Shown: one piece after another, positions 5,992 to 61,401 of the stretch
Position numbering within the stretch: the first letter of the stretch is position 1
Layout: each line of letters opens with the position of its first letter
From: Thermoanaerobaculia bacterium
GTDB lineage: Bacteria; Acidobacteriota; Thermoanaerobaculia; UBA5066; Gp7-AA6
NCBI GenBank assembly: GCA_036505535.1
Contig: DASXTI010000097.1
Span: 1 to 63,688, forward strand
DNA: 63,688 bases
Reading direction: 5' to 3'
The notes under the pieces: generated by a model
Told to the model about the DNA's origin: nothing
Database searches by the model: none
What the model saw: only the letters and a program-made list of their open reading frames with translations
Program-made: the position numbers and the translations under genes

Positions 5992-7077
5992 ATGACCGCC
6001 GTCGTGAAGACGAAGCCGGCGCCGGGGCCTGAAGCGACCGAAGTGAAGAGCGTGCCGGTCCCCAGCCCGGGACAAGCCGAAGTCTTGATTCGGGTCCTGG
6101 CGACGGCCGTCTGCGGATCCGACAAGCACATCTATCAGTGGGACCCGTCGATGGCCGGCATGTTCGAGCCGCCGCGGATCTACGGACACGAGTTCTGCGG
6201 GGAAATCGTCGCATTCGGCCCGGGCGGCAAGCGTCCGCATCTGGAAGAAGGACAGTACGTCTCGGCGGAGATGCACGTGACCTGCGGCGCGTGCCGCCCC
6301 TGCCTCACGGGACGGCGCCACATCTGCGAGAACACGCGCATCCTCGGGGTCCACGGCGACGGCTGTTTCGCCCAGTACGTCGTCGTGCCGGCCTTCAACG
6401 TCGTGCCGCTCGATCGGGCGATGATCCCCCCGCGCGTCGGAGCATTTCTCGACGCGCTCGGCAACGCCGTCCACACCACGCAGGTCGCGGATCTCTCGGG
6501 CAAGTCCGTTGCCGTCCTCGGCTACGGGCCGATCGGCGCGATGTGCGCGGAGATCGCGCGCATCTCCGGCGCGGCTCGGATCGCGATCACCGAGGTCAAC
6601 TCGTACGCGGCGGCGCACGCGCGGCGCTGGGCAGGATCGCGCGGCCTTGCCCACGTTTCCGTGATCGAGCTGCCGCGCACGAAGGATCACGTTGCAAGCC
6701 TGCGAGAGGCGACCGGAGGCGGCGCCGACGTCGTCCTGGAGCTCTCGGGTGCCGAGAGCTCCATCAATTTGGGCCTGGCCGCGTCGCGCCGCGGGGCGAC
6801 CCTTTCTCTGCTGGGACTACCGCGCGAAAAGGCGGTCACGATCCGCGACTACACCAACGACCTCGTCTTCAAAGGGCTGACTCTCCATGCGATCATCGGA
6901 CGGCGTATCTTCGACTCATGGATAAAGATGATCGATCTCCTTCGCGCCGGGCTCGACGTCGAGGATCTCGTCACCAACGAGTTCGATGGTCTCGAAGACT
7001 TCCACGAAGCCATGAAGCTGCTCGACGACCGGCGAGCGATGAAGGTCGTGTTTTATCCGAATGGGAGACCGAAGTGA
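5992..7077 (+). CDS. tdh: L-threonine 3-dehydrogenase
   Basis: Zn-dependent ADH fold (ATAVCGSDKHIYQWD, GHEFCGEIV). Start moved to ATG 5992 (MTAVVKTKP). Lies in the same cluster as kbl. Confidence 0.85.
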   Translation: MTAVVKTKPAPGPEATEVKSVPVPSPGQAEVLIRVLATAVCGSDKHIYQWDPSMAGMFEPPRIYGHEFCGEIVAFGPGGKRPHLEEGQYVSAEMHVTCGACRPCLTGRRHICENTRILGVHGDGCFAQYVVVPAFNVVPLDRAMIPPRVGAFLDALGNAVHTTQVADLSGKSVAVLGYGPIGAMCAEIARISGAARIAITEVNSYAAAHARRWAGSRGLAHVSVIELPRTKDHVASLREATGGGADVVLELSGAESSINLGLAASRRGATLSLLGLPREKAVTIRDYTNDLVFKGLTLHAIIGRRIFDSWIKMIDLLRAGLDVEDLVTNEFDGLEDFHEAMKLLDDRRAMKVVFYPNGRPK

Positions 7078-7146
7078 TTTTAGATTTTAGATTTTAGATT
7101 TGGCTGCGCCGTAGGCCTTAGTAATCCAAAATCCAAAATCTAAAAT
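7077..7146. repeat. heptamer-array hairpin H2 (TTTAGAT / AATCCAA units)
   Basis: Left arm 7077-7103 attttagattttagattttagatttgg. Right arm 7123-7146 aatccaaaatccaaaatctaaaat. The tdh TGA stop is immediately upstream of, and partly within, the first unit. Confidence 0.9.
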
Positions 7147-7693: not shown

Positions 7694-8872
7694 ATGAACC
7701 TCGCCGAGCACCTCGCCGGCCAGATGGCCGAGCTCAAGAGGGCGGGCACTTACAAGGAAGAGCTGGTGCTCCAGTCTGCCCAGGGCCCGCGGGTTCGAGT
7801 CGGCGGCCGCGAGGTCGTCATGCTGACCTCGAATAACTACCTCGGCTTCGCCAACCACCCGCGGATCCGCGAGGCCCAAAGGAAGGCGATCGAGCGCTGG
7901 GGCGCAGGATTGGGCTCCGTGCGTTTCATCTGCGGCACGCAGGAGCTCCACAAGGAGCTGGAGGCCGAGATCGCCTCCTTCTTCGGCACCGACGACGCGA
8001 TCCTCTACATGACCTGCTGGTCGGCCAACGAAGGCCTCTTCGCCGCGGTGTTGGACGAGCCCGACGGACTCTACTCCGACGAGCTCAATCACGCTTCGAT
8101 CATCGACGGCGCGCGGCTCTGCAAGGCGAGGCGCTTCCGCGTGCCGCACAACGACACGAAGTCCTTCGAAAAGATGGTCGAGGAGGATGCGACCTCACGC
8201 TTCCGTCTCATGATCACCGACGGCGTGTTTTCGATGGAAGGAGAAGAGGCGAACCTGCCGGAGCTCGTTCGCATCAGCGAGAAGTATGGGGTCGTGCTGG
8301 CCGTCGACGATTCTCACGCCACCGGAGTGCTCGGCAAGACGGGCCGCGGTACGGCGGAAGAACAGGGCGTCTTCGACCGGATCCCCCTCACGACCGGAAC
8401 GCTCGGGAAGGCGATGGGCTCGGCGGCGGGGGGCTTCGTGACGGGGCCGAAGGCGCTGGTGGAGGCGCTGCGGCAACGAAGCCGCACGTACCTCTTCTCC
8501 AACTCGCTTCCTCCCGCCGTCGCCGCCGGCTCGCTCGAGGCATTCCGCATGCTCCGGGAAGACCCCGCTCCCGTCGCAAAGCTTCGCGACAACGCGGCAT
8601 ACTTCCGGAAGGCCATCTCCGATGCCGGCTTCCGGATCCCCCACGGCACGCATCCGATCGTCCCCGTCATCGTCGGGGACACGGCGAAGGCGCTCGCAAT
8701 AGGGAAAGCCCTCTTCGAGGAGGGCGTCTACGTCTCGGGCTTCGGGTTCCCGGTCGTCCCGCAGGGTCAGGCGCGGCTGCGCTGCCAGGTCTCGGCCGCA
8801 CACGAGCGGGGCGACCTGGACGAGGCAGTGGAAGCCTTTACGAGGGTCGGGCGGCGCTTCGGGGTGATCTAG
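7694..8872 (+). CDS. kbl: glycine C-acetyltransferase (2-amino-3-ketobutyrate CoA ligase)
   Basis: Start at ATG 7694 (MNLAEHLAGQMAELKRAGTYKEE). PLP-transferase family motifs DDSHATG and TLGKA. Partner of tdh. Confidence 0.9.
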   Translation: MNLAEHLAGQMAELKRAGTYKEELVLQSAQGPRVRVGGREVVMLTSNNYLGFANHPRIREAQRKAIERWGAGLGSVRFICGTQELHKELEAEIASFFGTDDAILYMTCWSANEGLFAAVLDEPDGLYSDELNHASIIDGARLCKARRFRVPHNDTKSFEKMVEEDATSRFRLMITDGVFSMEGEEANLPELVRISEKYGVVLAVDDSHATGVLGKTGRGTAEEQGVFDRIPLTTGTLGKAMGSAAGGFVTGPKALVEALRQRSRTYLFSNSLPPAVAAGSLEAFRMLREDPAPVAKLRDNAAYFRKAISDAGFRIPHGTHPIVPVIVGDTAKALAIGKALFEEGVYVSGFGFPVVPQGQARLRCQVSAAHERGDLDEAVEAFTRVGRRFGVI

Positions 8873-8874
8873 AA

Positions 8875-8986
8875 GAATTGCCGATTGGCGATTGGCGATT
8901 GGCGATTGGCGATTGGCGATTGGCGATTGGCGATTGGGATGGCTAAGTCTTCAATCGGCAATCTTCAATCGGCAATCGGCAATTTT
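8875..8986. repeat. heptamer-array hairpin H3 (GATTGGC / CGGCAAT units)
   Basis: Left arm 8875-8938 has about 9 units, 7 of them perfect GATTGGC. Right arm 8948-8986 tcttcaatcggcaatcttcaatcggcaatcggcaatttt. Lies between convergent kbl and the OPT gene. Confidence 0.95.
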
Positions 8987-11006: not shown

Positions 11007-11084
11007 GCGACCTCCGTTTTAAGAGGTGGTGGTCAATCTGCTGGCGGGGGATTATATGCGGCGCGCCCGAATCAGACGAGGTTC

Positions 11085-11166
11085 GGGAAGCGGTAGGCGG
11101 GAAACGGTAAACGAGATTTCTGAAGGCCGCCTCGGCTTCCGTTTTCCGTCTTCCGGCTTCCGGCGG
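11085..11166. repeat. heptamer-array hairpin H4 (CGGTAAG-like / CTTCCGN units)
   Basis: Left arm 11085-11115 gggaagcggtaggcgggaaacggtaaacgag. Right arm 11136-11166 cttccgttttccgtcttccggcttccggcgg. Same unit family as H1. Confidence 0.85.
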
Positions 11167-11190
11167 CCCTCCGGGCCGGCTTCACACCCC

Positions 11191-11406
11191 TCACGTTCCT
11201 CCGAAACCGACGGTGACCTTGCCGGCCTCGAGGATGACGGGCACCTCGCGTCCGCCCGAGAGGCGGATCATCCGCGAAAGCTCTTCGTTGTCCTGTTTGA
11301 CGTTGATGTATTGGACCGAGTATTTCCGGCGCGCGTAGTCCTCACGGGCCGCGGTCGTATAGGGTCATGTGTCTTTGCCGAAGATCTCGACGCGCTTCTG
11401 CACCAT
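11191..11406 (-). CDS. glutaredoxin-like (NrdH/YruB-type) protein with in-frame TGA at the redox position; candidate selenoprotein, or else a pseudogene
   Basis: Not in the ORF track. ATG 11406 is preceded by GGAGG with a 4-nt spacer. Translation is MVQKRVEIFGKDT-[TGA 11365-11367]-PYTTAAREDYARRKYSVQYINVKQDNEELSRMIRLSGGREVPVILEAGKVTVGFGGT, with the stop at 11191-11193. The TGA replaces the first Cys of a CPYC-type motif. Confidence 0.55.
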
Positions 11407-11457
11407 ACGGCCTCCGCAAATCGCGATGATACGCCGGCGCGGCGCGGCTCGAATGCT

Positions 11458-12150
11458 ATGATTTTTCGAGAACACATGGTGAGGCTCGCCACTGCGCTCG
11501 TATTGAGGCTTCTGGCTTCACCGCCCGTCGGCGCCGGCACAGTTTCGGGCAAGGTCGCTCTGATCCAGAACGGTGTCCCGCGCACCGACGCTTCCAACGC
11601 CGTCGTTTGGATCGAGGGGGTGCACCAGGGCGGAATCGGCGCGATGAAGGGGGAGATGAAAAGCTCCTCGAAACGCTTCCTCCCCCGGGTCGTGGCCATC
11701 CCGAAGAACGCCACCGTCGACTTCCCCAACGCCGATCCGATCTACCACAACGTCTTCTCGGTCTCCGGCGCCAACCGCTTCGATCTCGGCCTCTACCGCA
11801 GCGGCGCCTCCAAGTCGAAGCGCTTCGAGGAGGCGGGCCTGGTACGCATCTACTGCAACATTCATCCCCAGATGGTTGGCTTCGTCATGGTCGTCGATTC
11901 CGACCTCGTCGCGATCACGGGTCCGGATGGCTCGTTCAAGTTCGACGGAGTGCCGCCCGGATCGCATGTCGTGAAGGCCTGGCACGAAGAGGGGACCGAA
12001 GTCGCGCATCCGGTCGCCGTCAAGTCCGGCGGGGACGCGCCGCTCGCGTTGCGCATCGACGTCTCGGGTTTCAAGCCCGAGCCGCACAAGAACAAGTACG
12101 GCAAGGAATACCCGCCGAAGGCGGGCGAATCGGACGATGAGCGCTACTGA
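11458..12150 (+). CDS. secreted cupredoxin-like protein with carboxypeptidase-regulatory-like C-terminal domain
   Basis: Start ATG 11458 (or 11476) followed by a signal peptide. Type-1 copper-like ligand pattern YHNVFS ... YCNIHPQM (H...C-x2-H-x2-M). C-terminal segment ITGPDGSFKFDGVPPGSHVVKAW. Confidence 0.7.
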   Translation: MIFREHMVRLATALVLRLLASPPVGAGTVSGKVALIQNGVPRTDASNAVVWIEGVHQGGIGAMKGEMKSSSKRFLPRVVAIPKNATVDFPNADPIYHNVFSVSGANRFDLGLYRSGASKSKRFEEAGLVRIYCNIHPQMVGFVMVVDSDLVAITGPDGSFKFDGVPPGSHVVKAWHEEGTEVAHPVAVKSGGDAPLALRIDVSGFKPEPHKNKYGKEYPPKAGESDDERY

Positions 12151-14269: not shown

Positions 14270-14361
14270 GAATCGCTGATTTGTGATTGGTGATTTGTGA
14301 TCAACGCGAAGAATTGGCTTGGACGCTCTAATCACAAATCACAAATCACAATTCACAAATT
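14270..14361. repeat. heptamer-array hairpin H5 (GATTTGT / ATCACAA units)
   Basis: Left arm 14270-14302 gaatcgctgatttgtgattggtgatttgtgatc. 26-nt loop. Right arm 14329-14361 taatcacaaatcacaaatcacaattcacaaatt. Confidence 0.95.
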
Positions 14362-22284: not shown

Positions 22285-22388
22285 GAGATTGGTGATTTGT
22301 GATTGGCGATTTGTGATCGTGGCGAATGAGGTAATGCCTTGGCATTTTCGCCTTGATCAGCAATCACCAATCTCCAATCACCAATTCC
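22285..22388. repeat. heptamer-array hairpin H8 (GATTTGT/GATTGGY / CAATCAC units) in a divergent spacer
   Basis: Left arm 22285-22319 gagattggtgatttgtgattggcgatttgtgatcg. Right arm 22355-22388 gatcagcaatcaccaatctccaatcaccaattcc. The loop contains a nested hairpin ggcgaa..aatgcc-tt-ggcatt..ttcgcc. Confidence 0.9.
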
Positions 22389-28286: not shown

Positions 28287-28410
28287 GGAATTGTCGATTG
28301 ACGATTGGCGATTGATGGCCTAGGACCTAACCGGCAATCGGCAATCGGCAATCACCAATCGGCAATCGGCAATCACGAATCGGCAATCACGAATCGGCAA
28401 TCGGCAATTT
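28287..28410. repeat. heptamer-array hairpin H10 (GATTGNC / CGGCAAT units), asymmetric
   Basis: Left arm 28287-28318 has about 4.5 units. Right arm 28331-28410 has about 11 units of cggcaat/caccaat/cacgaat. Lies between convergent genes. Confidence 0.95.
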
Positions 28411-33404: not shown

Positions 33405-33513
33405 GAGGTTTGTAGTCTGTAGTTCGGAGTTTGTGGTTTGGGCTCGGCGAGGCTCGACAGACCACAAACCACAAGCCAAAGACCACAGACCACAGACCAC
33501 AAACCACAGACCC
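33404..33513. repeat. heptamer-array hairpin H11 (GTAGTCT/GTGGTTT / ACCACAR units)
   Basis: Left arm 33404-33442 ggaggtttgtagtctgtagttcggagtttgtggtttggg. Right arm 33461-33513 (accacaa/accacag units) ends at the base before the bshA ATG. Confidence 0.9.
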
Positions 33514-35343: not shown

Positions 35344-36340
35344 CCTTCAGTCCCTTCTCCCTCTCCTCCTTCGAGCAGAAGGCGGCGTGCCACGCGTTGC
35401 CCGCGATGCGGCGAAGCTCTTCGTCGCCCACGCCCAGCTTCTCGCGCGCCAGACGGTACTCGCCGCGCGTCGTTGTCGCGAAGAGAATCGGATCGTCGGC
35501 CGAGAGGGTGACCCGAACGCCCGCGTCCAAGAGCTTCTTCAAAGGGTGCGCGGCAACATGCGCGACGGCGCCGGTCTGGAGATTGCCCGTCGGGGCGACG
35601 CACAGAATCGTGTCCTCTTCGGCCAGACGTTCCATCAGACGCGGATCTTGCGCCGCGGCGATGCCGTGATCGAGCCGATCGGGACGCAGGGCATCGAGGA
35701 CCTCGCGGACCGAAGCGGCGTCCGTCCACTCCCCGGCATGTACCGACGTACGCAGCCCCAGCGCCCTCGCCCGCAGATAAACCCCCGCGAACGCGGTCGC
35801 CGGCGCCGCCTTCTCGTCCCCGCCCAGCCCGAAGCCGACGATCGAGGGGAGCGGCATCTGCTCGTAGAGGTCGAGCACGCGTTCGGCGGACTCGGGTCCC
35901 CAATGCCGCACGGCGTCGAGCAGGATCCGGCAAAGAATCCCACGGGTCTCGAGCGACTCGCGGAAGCCGGCGTCGATGGCTTCCAGGCAGGCGGCCCGGT
36001 CGAGGCCCATCCGCGTGAATACCTCGGGCGACACGTAGATCTCGGCATAACGGACCCCGTCGTCGGACAGCGACTCCGCCATGCCGAGCGCCGCCTGCAG
36101 ATAGTCCTCGGGCCGGCGAAAAAGCCGGCAGATCTCGGCGTAGAGAAGCAGAAACGCCTCCGGATCGCGCGCGGAACGCCGCGCCGTTTCAAAGACGGCC
36201 GGATCCGCGAAGGGATGCTTCGCGCGGCCGGCCAGCCGCCCGATCTCGGAGGCCGGAAGGCAGCCCTCGAAGTGAAGGTGACAGTCCGCCAGGAATTGAG
36301 AATGGAGAATGGAGAATGGAGAATCGGGGTCGCCGCTCAT
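35321..36340 (-). CDS. add: adenosine deaminase
   Basis: Metal-binding CHLHFEG, SVHAGE and SADDP motifs. The N-terminal codons SPFSILHSQF are encoded by the H13 left arm. Confidence 0.85.
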   Translation of the reverse strand: MSGDPDSPFSILHSQFLADCHLHFEGCLPASEIGRLAGRAKHPFADPAVFETARRSARDPEAFLLLYAEICRLFRRPEDYLQAALGMAESLSDDGVRYAEIYVSPEVFTRMGLDRAACLEAIDAGFRESLETRGILCRILLDAVRHWGPESAERVLDLYEQMPLPSIVGFGLGGDEKAAPATAFAGVYLRARALGLRTSVHAGEWTDAASVREVLDALRPDRLDHGIAAAQDPRLMERLAEEDTILCVAPTGNLQTGAVAHVAAHPLKKLLDAGVRVTLSADDPILFATTTRGEYRLAREKLGVGDEELRRIAGNAWHAAFCSKEEREKGLKGLVIGDL

Positions 36341-36413
36341 GGTTCACCATTCAGACTTCGCGATTTTTGATTCCCCATTCTCAATTCTCAATTCTCGATT
36401 CACAATTCTCTCC
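36292..36413. repeat. heptamer-array hairpin H13 (GAATGGA / CATTCTC units) enclosing the add start codon
   Basis: Left arm 36292-36329 ggaattgagaatggagaatggagaatggagaatcgggg. Right arm 36373-36413 ccccattctcaattctcaattctcgattcacaattctctcc. The add ATG (36340-36338) lies in the 43-nt loop. Confidence 0.95.
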
Positions 36414-38402: not shown

Positions 38403-38489
38403 TCTGTAGTCTGTGGTTTGTGGTTTGGGTTTGTGGTTTGTGGTTCCAACTACAGACTACAGACAACAAACTACAAACTCCAAACTCCC
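38389..38489. repeat. heptamer-array hairpin H15 (GTAGTCT x3 + GTGGTTT x5 / ACTACAR units)
   Basis: Left arm 38389-38445. Right arm 38446-38489, with essentially no loop. Lies between convergent yidD and a secreted-protein gene. Confidence 0.95.
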
Positions 38490-40011: not shown

Positions 40012-40725
40012 TCAAGCGCGAGCGATCGATTCGAACGCCGCCACGGAGAGGCTCGCCCCGCCGATCAAGAACCCGTCCATACCACTTTCGTCGAGAAGCG
40101 CCGCCGCGTTCTCGGGCGTGACCGAGCCGCCGTAGAGGATGCGAAGGTTGGGGCGCGCCGACAGGAGCTCGGCCAAGTGCACGCGCGCGGAGGCGGCGTC
40201 CTCGGGTGTTGCCGCCTTGCCCGTTCCGATCGCCCATACCGGCTCATAGGCGACAACGAGAGAGGAGTTCTTGGGATCCTTTTCGAGAGTCTCGACCTGA
40301 CGGACGAGAGTCGCCGAAGTCAAACCCGCCTCGCGCTCGTCATCCGTCTCACCGAGGCAGTAGATCGGCGTCAGCCCGGCCTCCCGGCAGCGCTGTAGCT
40401 TCCGGGAGAGCATCGGGCCGTCCTCGCCGAAGAGGCGCCGGCGCTCGGAGTGGCCGATGATCGCGTAGCGGCATCCCGCCTCCGCGGCCATTCGCGCCGA
40501 GACCTCACCCGTGAAAGCGCCGGACGATTCGGCGGAGACGTTCTGGCAGGCCAGCGACCAGCGTTCTCCCGGATCACGCGCGGCGTCGAGAGCCGTGAAA
40601 GCAGGAGCCAGCACGAGCTCGCGTCCCGGAATTTTCTCGCCGATTCGCGCGCCGAGGTCAGCCGCGTAGGCCCTCGCTTCCGCGCGGGTCTTGTTCATCT
40701 TCCAGTTGGCGACGAAGAGAAGCAT
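40012..40725 (-). CDS. tpiA: triose-phosphate isomerase
   Basis: Motifs ANWKMN, IGHSERR and AYEPVWAIGTG. ATG 40725 preferred over the track TTG 40734. Confidence 0.9.
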   Translation of the reverse strand: MLLFVANWKMNKTRAEARAYAADLGARIGEKIPGRELVLAPAFTALDAARDPGERWSLACQNVSAESSGAFTGEVSARMAAEAGCRYAIIGHSERRRLFGEDGPMLSRKLQRCREAGLTPIYCLGETDDEREAGLTSATLVRQVETLEKDPKNSSLVVAYEPVWAIGTGKAATPEDAASARVHLAELLSARPNLRILYGGSVTPENAAALLDESGMDGFLIGGASLSVAAFESIARA

Positions 40726-54390: not shown

Positions 54391-54486
54391 TTTCGGCTCC
54401 TTTCGAGGAGCCGACGGGAAGACCCGATCGGACCCGTGAGGACTACCGGATCTTAACCCGCCCGGGTGGAAGGGTGCTATTGACAA

Positions 54487-54515
54487 TTGACACACGCCGG
54501 TTCCGCGACTACTGT
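54487..54515 (+). promoter_or_regulatory. putative sigma70-type promoter for the SAM-riboswitch transcript
   Basis: TTGACA at 54487-54492 (a second TTGACA at 54480-54485), a 17-nt spacer, then TACTGT at 54510-54515. Lies about 45 nt upstream of the riboswitch. Confidence 0.4.
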
Positions 54516-54558
54516 GGGCGGCAGTTCTTTGAGCCCGGCCGGATCTTCCGCGTTCCGG

Positions 54559-54677
54559 CCGCATCCAGAGTGGGTGAGGGACCGGCCCGATGACCCCACG
54601 GCAACCGGGATCGCGCGTCGCGGCGCGACTCGACAGGTGCCAATTCCGGAATTCTCCGTTCGGAGAAGAAGATGGGG
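54559..54677 (+). promoter_or_regulatory. SAM-I (S-box) riboswitch
   Basis: CCGCAUCCAGAGUGGGUGAGGGACCGGCCCGAUGACCCCACGGCAACC...AGGUGCCAAUUCCGGA...GAAGAUGGGG matches the conserved S-box core (AUC.AGAG.GG..GAGGGA..GGCCC.AUGA..CC.GCAACC ... GGUGC.AA.UCC ... AGAUG). Confidence 0.85.
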
Positions 54678-54707
54678 GGTGACGCGACGAGGTCCTCGCG
54701 GGCCCGC

Positions 54708-54732
54708 GCCTCTCGCCTCGAGAGGCTTTTTT
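54708..54732 (+). terminator. intrinsic terminator (riboswitch expression platform)
   Basis: gcctctcg-cct-cgagaggc stem followed by TTTTTT, 10 nt before the ATG at 54742. Confidence 0.8.
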
Positions 54733-54741
54733 GTTGCGCCA

Positions 54742-56619
54742 ATGAAGAAAGACTTTCGAAAGACGATCGCCGAGGAGGTCCTGCTGGCCGATGGCGCCAT
54801 CGGGACCCTGCTGACTTCGCGCGGCGCCTCGCCGGAGCAGGCGCGGTCGCCGCTGAACCTCTCCGATCCGGAATCCGTCAGGGAAGTCCACGACGACTAC
54901 CTCGAGGCGGGAGCGCGGATCTTGACGACCAACACCTGGGACGCCAACCGCGTCAAGCTCACCATCCACGAGTGGGCCGACTCGCTCGAGAAGATCAATC
55001 GGGAAGGGGTGCGCCTGGCGAAGGAGGCGGCGGCCGGCGAGATCGTCTATGTCGCCGGATCGATCGGGCCGCTCGGCGCGCTCGTGCGCCCGTACGGATC
55101 GCTTCATCTTTCTCAGGTGCGCGAGATCTTCGAAGAGCAGGCTCGCGCTCTTTTGGAGTCGGGAGTCGATCTGATTCTTCTCGAAACCTTCGGTAGCCTT
55201 CTCGAAGCGGCCGAGGCGGTCCGGGCCGTGCGTGGTTTGTCTTCCGAGGTCCCGATCGTCGCCGAGATGACCTTTCTCGCCGACGGACGCACCGCTTTCG
55301 GAGAAGCGGTGTCGCACGCGCTCTCGACTCTGGCTCTGGCGGGAGCGGATGCCGTCGGCATGAACTGCACGCTGGGACCGCAGGAGACCCACGACCTCTT
55401 CACCCGGCTTCCCGCGACGATCTCGGCACCGCTGTCCGTCATGCCCAACGCCGGCTATCCGAGCCTCGTGCACGGCCGCAACGTCTATCTGTCCTCGCCC
55501 GACTACCTGCGGGGGTACGCCGCCGCATTCGTCGAGGCCGGCGCCGCGATCGTGGGCGGCTGCTGCGGCACCACGCCCGAGCACATTCGCGCCATGGCGC
55601 GCGAGGTCGCCGGCAAGAAGAGGGCCCGCGTCTCCCGTCCCGTGTCGGTCGTCGTCGAAGCCGAGGTCGAGCACGTCGGAGAGACCCCGATCGAGACCTC
55701 GCGTTTGAAGCGCAAGCTCTCCGGCGCGGACGAGCTCGTGATCACGAGCGAAGTCGAGCCTCCCAAGGGAGCCGACTCCTCCGCCGCCATCGAGGGGGCG
55801 CGGCTGCTCAAGTCCTGTGGCGTCGACGCGATCAACGTGACGGATAACCCGATGGCCCGTCTGCGGATGTCCTCGATAGCCGTCGCAGCACTGATCCAGC
55901 GGGAAGTGGGCCTGGATGCCGTCGTGCAAATCACCACTCGGGACCGCAACGTGCTCGGCCTTCAGTCCGACTTGCTCGGCGCCGCCGGCCTCGGCGTCAA
56001 GGCGATCCTTTGCCTCGGCGGGGATCCGCTGAAGATCGGCGACTATCCTCAGGCCAAACAGGTCTCCGAGGTCGACGTCCTCGGTTTGCTGCGGATGGCC
56101 AAAGGGCTCAATGCCGGAGCGGACCTCGCGGGCAACGCGATCGGAGCGCCAACACGCTTCGCCATCGCGTGTGCGGCCAATCCGGCGGCGGCGGATCAGG
56201 AGGTCGAGCTCTCCAAGCTCCGCGCCAAGATCGAGGCCGGCGCGAGCTTCGCGCAGACGCAGCCCGTCTACGATCTGGAGGCCCTCGCGCGGTTTCTCGA
56301 GCGCCCCGAAACGCGAGCGATCCCGATCCTCGTCGGGCTGATTCCGCTCCTTTCGCTCAAGCAGACCCTCTTCTTCGCCAACGAAGTCCCGGGCGTCGTC
56401 GTGCCGCCCGCCATTCAGGAGCGCATGCGCCGCGCGGCCGAGCGCGGGCCCGATCACGAGAAGGCCGAAGGTCTCGCGATCGCGCGGGAGCTCGCGGTGG
56501 GGATCGCGAAGGTCGCGCGCGGCATCCACATCATGCCGATGGGCCGGTACAAGACGGCCGGCGCAATCCTCGAGGCCGTCCCCCGGCAGCCCGCGCCGGG
56601 GAGACGCGCGCCGGCGTAG
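54742..56619 (+). CDS. bifunctional homocysteine S-methyltransferase / 5,10-methylenetetrahydrofolate reductase (YitJ-like)
   Basis: Start ATG 54742 (MKKDFRKTIAEEVLLADGAIGT). N-terminal Hcy-binding domain with GGCCGTTPEHI. C-terminal MTHFR-like domain (EVEPPKG ... TDNPMA ... QTQPVYD). Confidence 0.85.
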   Translation: MKKDFRKTIAEEVLLADGAIGTLLTSRGASPEQARSPLNLSDPESVREVHDDYLEAGARILTTNTWDANRVKLTIHEWADSLEKINREGVRLAKEAAAGEIVYVAGSIGPLGALVRPYGSLHLSQVREIFEEQARALLESGVDLILLETFGSLLEAAEAVRAVRGLSSEVPIVAEMTFLADGRTAFGEAVSHALSTLALAGADAVGMNCTLGPQETHDLFTRLPATISAPLSVMPNAGYPSLVHGRNVYLSSPDYLRGYAAAFVEAGAAIVGGCCGTTPEHIRAMAREVAGKKRARVSRPVSVVVEAEVEHVGETPIETSRLKRKLSGADELVITSEVEPPKGADSSAAIEGARLLKSCGVDAINVTDNPMARLRMSSIAVAALIQREVGLDAVVQITTRDRNVLGLQSDLLGAAGLGVKAILCLGGDPLKIGDYPQAKQVSEVDVLGLLRMAKGLNAGADLAGNAIGAPTRFAIACAANPAAADQEVELSKLRAKIEAGASFAQTQPVYDLEALARFLERPETRAIPILVGLIPLLSLKQTLFFANEVPGVVVPPAIQERMRRAAERGPDHEKAEGLAIARELAVGIAKVARGIHIMPMGRYKTAGAILEAVPRQPAPGRRAPA

Positions 56620-61294: not shown

Positions 61295-61401
61295 GAATCG
61301 GTGATTTGTGACTGGTGATTCGTGATTTGTGATCGAGGCAACCCGATCACTCTTCAGTTGTGATCACAAATCACAAATCTCCAATCCCAATTATCTTCAA
61401 T
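61295..61401. repeat. heptamer-array hairpin H21 (GATTTGT/GATTCGT / ATCACAA units)
   Basis: Left arm 61295-61335 gaatcggtgatttgtgactggtgattcgtgatttgtgatcg. Right arm 61344-61401 contains the cls stop. Confidence 0.9.

Follow-up and report, generated by a model that had tools for sequence, protein, structure and literature searches.

Gene and reading frame

The window (by which we mean the whole stretch of DNA analysed, 63.7 kb) carries on its minus strand a small glutaredoxin-like gene with two in-frame TGA codons, both of which very probably encode selenocysteine (Sec, U). As read directly from the window, the minus-strand frame from 11406 to 11191 translates as MVQKRVEIFGKDT, a TGA, PYTTAAREDYARRKYSVQYINVKQDNEELSRMIRLSGGREVPVILEAGKVTVGFGGT and another TGA. 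The in-frame GC content of the gene at the three codon positions (GC1/2/3 of 0.61/0.42/0.80) is typical for coding sequence in the window. An earlier note on this DNA, made from the letters alone, had reported the open reading frame, the in-frame TGA at 11367-11365 and a GGAGG 4 nt before the ATG at 11406, and all three are present. It had also closed the frame at 11191, after 71 codons; the true end is at 11182, after 74 residues, and 11193-11191 is the second Sec codon. Taking this TGA for a stop, the note missed the C-terminal U-X-X-stop motif that defines the family. Beyond the codons GGA ACG the DNA reads TGA GGG GTG TGA (11193-11182), that is, U-G-V-stop, and the complete product has the architecture M1...U14-P-Y-T...GFGG-T71-U72-G73-V74 (Table 1).

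Table 1. Coordinates of the selenoprotein gene and its signals in the window
Feature	Position	Strand	Basis and remarks
Shine-Dalgarno-like GGAGG	11411..11415	-	Direct reading; 4-nt spacer ccgt, then ATG at 11406
Full CDS, UXX-star family 1 glutaredoxin-like selenoprotein, 74 aa	11182..11406	-	Sequence, NF041114 and homologous loci
Probable first Sec codon UGA, residue 14	11365..11367	-	Nucleophilic position of the glutaredoxin active site, U-P-Y-T
SECIS-like hairpin 1, inside the CDS	11332..11353	-	CGCG-GC-CC[GUGA]GG-ACUA-CGCG
Probable second Sec codon UGA, residue 72	11191..11193	-	TGA in 80/82 loci; equivalent to NF041114 profile position 68
Tail GGG GTG (Gly73-Val74) and true stop TGA	11182..11190	-	Stop codon at 11184-11182
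SECIS-like hairpin 2, 3' UTR	11164..11178	-	CGGCCC[GGA]GGGCCG

The gene is divergent from a CarboxypepD_reg-like gene, a HAMP Ser/Thr kinase and a porin-like gene, and is followed downstream by an OPT-family transporter and an aminotransferase. Some 55 of the related loci with Sec at position 14 show synteny over this five-gene block, within one clade, and adjacency to the OPT transporter is kept in 56 loci; forms with Cys at position 14 in other clades have different neighbours. Because the whole block is syntenic in a single clade, and because the neighbours of the Cys14 forms differ, we did not take the adjacency as a sign of a functional link to the transporter.

The opposite strand has been annotated differently. 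JGI calls a 374-aa plus-strand gene, corresponding to 11026-12150, on the identical contigs Ga0376053_0006695 and Ga0376048_0001272, and if that call were the real gene, then the glutaredoxin-like frame would be fortuitous. We find this almost inconceivable. The 5' extension of the call (11026-11481) has GC1/2/3 of 0.71/0.51/0.62, which is not coding-like, versus 0.63/0.45/0.85 for the remaining 11482-12150; a signal-peptide-like start, MVRLATAL..., is found at 11476; homology to CarboxypepD_reg-like proteins begins approximately 140-360 nt away from the glutaredoxin-like gene in 59 loci; and the glutaredoxin-like frame scores 113 bits against the model of a curated family. The 5' third of the JGI call (11026-11481 on the plus strand; also in loci L005 and L006) thus lies antisense across the selenoprotein gene, and the real start of the plus-strand gene is near 11476.

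Two other features of the window are recorded here. Tandem repeats with a period of 7 nt, in 3-11 copies, occupy about 25 intergenic sites, for example 7076-7146, 8877-8983, 11070-11164, 14277-14360, 22287-22385, 28290-28408, 33408-33512, 36293-36410, 38412-38486 and 61301-61390. Usually they consist of two adjacent arrays of complementary heptamers, which could form long hairpins. One such array follows the 3' hairpin of the selenoprotein gene, and different heptamer arrays are found at the same place in L001, L009, L015, L027, L045 and L056. These repeats could be terminators, or else a lineage-wide repeat class. A SAM riboswitch (RF00162) is located at 54558-54678 on the plus strand, with a score of 66 bits against the gathering score of 44.4, and falls within the 5' part of the stop-to-stop open frame 54484-56619.

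Family membership and known relatives

When the first TGA is read as Cys, the product matches the Pfam Glutaredoxin domain at 36.1 bits (cut-off 22.9). A much more specific match is to NF041114, the NCBIfam model "UXX-star selenoprotein family 1", which has a curated equivalog cut-off of 72 bits. Without the tail, the frame scores 103.8 bits and covers only profile positions 1-67 of 70; with the tail, and both TGAs read as Cys, it scores 112.9 bits and covers positions 1-70 of 70. The stretch TGA GGG GTG TGA supplies the three missing profile positions, which indicates that the gene spans 11406..11182 and encodes 74 amino acids with two Sec codons. The product thus combines an equivalog-level score and full-length coverage with the C-terminal U-X-X-star and the N-terminal U/C-x-x-T of the family, and relatives of it recovered from NCBI in our protein search are named UXX-star. 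Models of the classical glutaredoxin-like families are matched far below their cut-offs: the score is 33.4 bits against 90 for the Grx3-type TIGR02181, where the second motif position is Thr17, and, for NrdH and YruB, 22.0 against 85.75 bits (TIGR02194) and 33.9 against 88.55 bits (TIGR02196).

Among solved structures, the best sequence match is E. coli glutaredoxin 3 (E = 0.002). VEIFGKDT-C-PYT in the window aligns with VEIYTKET-C-PYC, so that the TGA falls on the nucleophilic Cys11 and the second Cys of the CPYC motif is replaced by Thr. Like the window protein, Grx3, NrdH and YruB have the thioredoxin/glutaredoxin fold, with the nucleophile in the same place and a V-P (cis-Pro) loop; the window protein differs in that it lacks the second Cys of CxxC and in that its chain ends right after β4, without a C-terminal helix. 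Glutaredoxin 1 of Clostridium oremlandii (PDB structures 7c10 and 7c12, both Cys forms) is likewise a small glutaredoxin-fold protein of about 73 aa with an N-terminal nucleophilic Sec. The clostridial protein, however, has a dithiol-type UxxC motif, a single Sec and no C-terminal Sec tail, whereas the window protein has Thr at the second active-site position and a second Sec three residues from the C-terminus. UXX-star family 1 itself shares with the window protein the UxxT motif, the C-terminal U-X-X-stop, two Sec, a length of about 70-74 aa and the glutaredoxin fold. We detected no difference between them, other than that the copy in the window is unannotated and the opposite strand is over-called.

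The gene is therefore of a kind already known; it is mis-annotated and does not found a new family, even though the earlier note had presented it as a new candidate. NF041114 is tabulated with the UxxT motif and two Sec in a 2026 review (PMC13188914), and the same family appears as "Distant Grx-like protein 1", with UxxT, in a 2022 review (PMC9312934). According to the 2026 review, the family was first detected in the ocean-metagenome study by Zhang & Gladyshev 2008, the main text of which does not name UXX-star family 1 explicitly, and credit for further families of the UXX-star type, namely family 2 and the HUGP/GUXX-star fusion, goes to Haft & Tolstoy 2025 (PMC13188914). Our literature search found no protein-level evidence of Sec for any member of UXX-star family 1. 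Nor did the search, the coverage of which did not extend to Haft & Tolstoy 2025, find a comparative description of the two SECIS-like hairpins discussed below.

Homologous loci and the two TGA codons

We collected 79 relatives in a protein search and 394 in a scan of one genome per species, and took 80 loci from the latter for comparison at the DNA level. Acidobacteriota MAGs carrying the labels Thermoanaerobaculia or Vicinamibacterales account for almost all of these 80; Deltaproteobacteria and Eisenbacteria contribute a few. The complete comparison set consists of 82 non-redundant loci, the window included.

The active-site codon 14 is TGA in 68 of the 82 loci and TGC or TGT in the other 14, and the motif at this place is accordingly U (68) or C (14) followed by P-Y/H-T. 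The column of the first TGA is thus a Cys column, and the same column holds Cys11 of E. coli Grx3, which bears out the earlier proposal of a glutaredoxin-like protein with Sec in place of the nucleophilic Cys; passage of the NF041114 cut-off and the covarying hairpin described below point the same way. Codon 72, which follows GFGGT, behaves differently: TGA is found there in 80 of 82 loci, and the exceptions are one GGA (Gly) and one TCA (Ser). Since codon 72 is not Cys in any of the 82 loci, pairing of a Sec UGA with Cys, a general criterion for bacterial selenoprotein genes, applies to site 14 only.

The case for codon 72 comes from what follows it. The distance from this codon to the real stop is exactly two codons in all 82 loci, the stop itself being TGA in 45, TAG in 34 and TAA in 3. 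The two intervening residues are Gly-Val in 76 loci, and each of them is encoded by four synonymous codons, with the major codon accounting for a fraction of only 0.52-0.54, a diversity equal to that of the Gly codons just upstream of the second TGA. Synonymous variation in a conserved tail indicates selection on amino acids, and hence that the tail is translated. Both loci with a sense codon at position 72 still read ...GV-stop.

Several loci have a sense codon at one of the Sec positions: GTA in L087 (340-342), TTA in L088 (196-198) and L089 (514-516), GGA in L020 (531-533) and TCA in L055 (10220-10222). Two of these five cases are single G-to-T changes; the SECIS-like sequence adjacent to the codon is retained in L087, L088 and L020 despite the sense codon; and L087, L088 and L089 are short contigs from single samples. 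These may be real alleles that have lost Sec, or they may be errors. Two MAGs have two copies of the gene each, on different contigs (L007 and L033 in JBBQKV01; L020 and L034 in QHVV01). The neighbours within the available flanks are similar, which suggests mixed strains in a bin, not paralogues.

SECIS-like hairpin inside the coding region

In the window, hairpin 1 occupies positions +14 to +35 counted from the T of the first TGA; a gap of 11 nt separates the UGA from the base of the stem, and one of 19 nt separates it from the GUGA loop (11345-11342). Its consensus is N-GCG-GC-CC[GUGA]GG-ACUA-CGC-N'. Codons 20-22 form the top of this hairpin and read GCC CGT GAG in every one of the 68 Sec forms, whereas all three are free to vary among the 14 Cys forms (GCG/GCC/GCT/GCA, CGC/CGA/CGG/CGT and GAC/GAT/GAG/GAA). 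CGT is one of six codons for Arg, and among the 34 columns with a conserved amino acid in the 68 Sec forms, GCC, CGT and GAG are the only ones that use a single codon. Confinement of this invariance to the Sec forms implies a constraint at the RNA level that is tied to the TGA.

The stem is supported by covariation. Its outer pair, 11353/11332, joins the third positions of Thr18 and Ala25, both synonymous sites, and is CG in 24, GC in 8, UA in 6, AU in 2 and UG in 2 of the 51 distinct rows. Taking the helix as a whole, pairing is found in 95.5% of cells, versus at most 52% when the partner strand is slid, and the covariation score was reached by none of 500 shuffles.

Published rules for bacterial SECIS elements (bSECIS) call for a loop of 3-9 nt with a G among the first two positions, an upper stem of 4-16 bp, a spacing of 16-37 nt from UGA to loop, and a minimum free energy (MFE) of -7.5 kcal/mol or lower (PMC13188914, Figure 2). 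Both hairpins of the gene fit these rules with respect to the loop G and the 16-37 nt spacing. Hairpin 1 of the window has seven pairs, split by an internal loop with 2-3 pairs above it, and its MFE of -6.7 kcal/mol (z = 0.36) is just weaker than the threshold. The earlier note had suggested folding the RNA 3' of the TGA; folding of single sequences gives z near 0 after either TGA in the 65% GC context, which is uninformative, and the comparative evidence was used instead. The imperfect stem CCGCGGC...GCGCCGG that the note had pointed out does exist, and is in fact the MFE fold of the window; it is not a conserved element, and we rejected it as a SECIS because codons 26-27, needed for its pairing, are not constant among the loci.

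These observations bear on the possibility that the gene is a pseudogene, or that TGA stands at 11367-11365 in place of TGC or TGT through a mistake in sequencing or assembly. Variants or errors do exist in this family, as the GTA and TTA codons in L087, L088 and L089 attest. But 68 loci, almost every one from a different species-level genome, share TGA at this codon; the 13 codons upstream of it (VEIFGKDT) are kept as protein, with synonymous variation; and a dedicated RNA element follows it in the TGA forms only. In addition, two independent JGI assemblies agree on the protein of the neighbouring OPT transporter, a check that concerns the neighbour and not the TGA codon. Decay or error at this codon is, in our judgement, extremely improbable.

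Hairpin in the 3' untranslated region

Hairpin 2 lies directly 3' of the real stop and is GC-rich. In the window it has 6 bp, a G-first loop GGA, 18 nt between UGA-72 and the loop, and an MFE of -11.2 kcal/mol, and so conforms to the bSECIS rules, although the single-sequence z-score is only -0.6 in this GC-rich context. Aligned with MAFFT, the 3' UTR hairpins did not fall into structural register, and that alignment was discarded in favour of a positional test and a loop-anchored subset. In this subset, compensatory changes are seen at all 7 stem pairs and 96.7% of cells are paired, with the reservation that the alignment was fitted to the structure; the positional test with controls is the fairer of the two. 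For that test a hairpin counted as strict when it had 6 or more perfect pairs, a 3-5 nt loop with a G among the first two positions, and a spacing of 16-24 nt. Of 81 loci, 60 (74%) have such a hairpin; the corresponding rate is 4.2% for shuffled sequences, and among the stops of five neighbouring genes 14 of 233 (6%) are followed by one. The remaining 21 loci fail the strict definition through shorter or mismatched stems. Loop starts fall between +19 and +23 in 69 of the 81 loci, and GUC, GGC, GGA, GGUC, CGUGC and GGU are the most frequent loop sequences. Rfam has no match at the gathering threshold near the gene, and returns only chance-level matches at E up to 10.

A GC-rich hairpin just 3' of a gene could also be a transcription terminator, in which case only the first TGA would be recoded, 11193-11191 would be a real stop, and the protein would have 71 aa. 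The NCBI record of one homologue (P0039, 73 aa) does end at GFGGT, and a T-run follows the hairpin in 6 of 81 loci. Such a run is missing from the other 75, however, which makes hairpin 2 unlike a typical intrinsic terminator. The terminator explanation also leaves unaccounted for the constant two codons before the stop; the Gly-Val tail, where the use of four synonymous codons each betrays selection on amino acids, not nucleotides; the retention of ...GV-stop in the loci with GGA or TCA at codon 72; the three tail positions of the NF041114 profile, which add 9 bits to the score; and the narrow range of distances from TGA to loop, together with the scarcity of comparable hairpins after neighbouring stops. 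We regard a single recoded TGA as improbable.

Decoding and selenocysteine machinery

We infer that both UGA codons are decoded by SelB and Sec-tRNA(Sec). Translation would begin at ATG 11406; at UGA-14, the hairpin 11353-11332 within the coding region, with its GUGA loop, would recruit SelB with Sec-tRNA(Sec), and Sec would be placed at the position of the glutaredoxin nucleophilic Cys to give U-P-Y-T, without a second active-site Cys. Translation would then go on to UGA-72, where the 3' UTR hairpin 11178-11164 would direct a second insertion of Sec, and the protein would end in U-G-V.

The earlier note had found no sel genes in the window, and neither did we: no tRNA-Sec and no SelA, SelB or SelD motifs were detected across the 63.7 kb. 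ARAGORN likewise found no tRNA-Sec in 60 related loci, and the motif search, run over 1.26 Mb of sequence flanking 80 related loci, found none of the three proteins. This negative result says little, because only 10-kb flanks of the related loci were covered. Sec-using Acidobacteriota are on record.

Could the TGAs be decoded without selenium, either in a reassigned code (TGA as Trp or Gly, tables 4/25) or by near-cognate read-through with Trp or Cys? The failure to detect Sec machinery in the sequence covered would suit such a scheme, and the JGI gene calls for P0001, P0002 and P0005 print W at both positions. But TGA is the commonest ordinary stop in the window, where it closes 21 of the 38 long ORFs that look coding, which shows that the standard genetic code is in use. 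W in the gene calls is simply TGA translated as W, the final codon included, and the DNA of L001 has TGA at both positions. Moreover, the position pairs with Cys in homologues, not with Trp or Gly, and hairpins with a G-first loop at the SECIS distance are specific to the TGA forms. We therefore hold decoding without selenium to be very improbable. The JGI entries P0001, P0002, P0005 and P0011 all have W at both Sec positions and end on W; in L001 the corresponding TGAs are at 8043-8045 and 8217-8219.

Other selenoprotein genes in the window were sought in two ways. A scan for coding potential on both sides of a TGA gave only one other case, the minus-strand TGA at 40012-40014, which has coding-like sequence in frame on both sides; judging from the translation, it appears to be the junction between a tpiA-like and a secG-like gene, and it does not resemble a Sec site. 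A scan of the window for SECIS-like hairpins returned only the second TGA of the present gene and frames that are not coding-like.

On this evidence, we are highly confident that the 74-aa gene is real, functional and unannotated, and that it encodes a glutaredoxin-fold selenoprotein of UXX-star family 1 with two selenocysteines.

Fold and possible chemistry

The AlphaFold2 model of a Cys homologue (P0022; mean pLDDT 83.5) has the glutaredoxin topology β1-α1-β2-α2-β3-β4 and no C-terminal helix; residues 71-74 form a low-confidence, disordered tail. Its best matches in PDB are glutaredoxins, including the Cys form of C. oremlandii Grx1 (TM 0.75), and also NrdH. The tail bearing Sec72 would, by this model, take the place of the usual C-terminal helix of glutaredoxins.

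Since the second active-site Cys is Thr, and since the other Sec is carried on a flexible tail, the simplest mechanism, which we propose tentatively from topology alone, is that Sec72 may resolve the Sec14 nucleophile by forming a diselenide within the molecule, or a selenenylsulfide where position 14 is Cys; we put this at somewhat short of an even chance. Mammalian thioredoxin reductase, which ends in -Gly-Cys-Sec-Gly, uses a Sec on a flexible tail as a mobile redox centre, and Sec insertion into this enzyme in E. coli can be supported by a SECIS placed after the stop, in untranslated RNA. The resemblance to the window protein consists in a Sec few residues from the C-terminus and in a layout, with the SECIS after the stop, like that of hairpin 2. 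The reductase, however, is unrelated in fold and size, its Sec has an adjacent Cys as the partner, and its natural SECIS is of the eukaryotic type. The main alternative to a Sec14-Sec72 redox pair is that the two selenolates make up a binding site for a metal or metalloid, in line with the suggestions of reviews; on the function of the family, the 2026 review goes no further than to mention metal binding as a possibility, or a substrate yet to be identified (PMC13188914).

Implications

For annotation, the real 74-aa gene is missing, and a gene on the opposite strand is over-extended across it. Public protein sets contain members of the family that are truncated, or that have W, L or V at the Sec positions. 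A stop right after a conserved C-terminal motif is worth checking for a U-X-X-stop extension. None of these findings alters the present picture of selenoproteins.

For the family, the two Sec positions behave differently over the 82 loci: the C-terminal Sec is nearly obligate and never replaced by Cys, while position 14 switches between Sec and Cys. Such switching at the active site, against a near-obligate Sec at the C-terminus, is a testable clue to mechanism. In addition, the 9-nt block GCCCGUGAG does not vary between loci labelled as Acidobacteriota, Vicinamibacterales or Deltaproteobacteria and those that are unclassified. A joint reading of these facts, which we consider possible but doubtful, is that the two Sec form a natural diselenide centre within the protein, linking the glutaredoxin active site to a mobile C-terminal tail. 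If this were true, GCCCGUGAG would be a SelB-recognition motif common across phyla, or one spread with the gene; the C-terminal Sec would be the indispensable one, with the "catalytic" position 14 free to be Sec or Cys; and the protein would rank as a natural diselenide oxidoreductase of very small size and unusually low redox potential.
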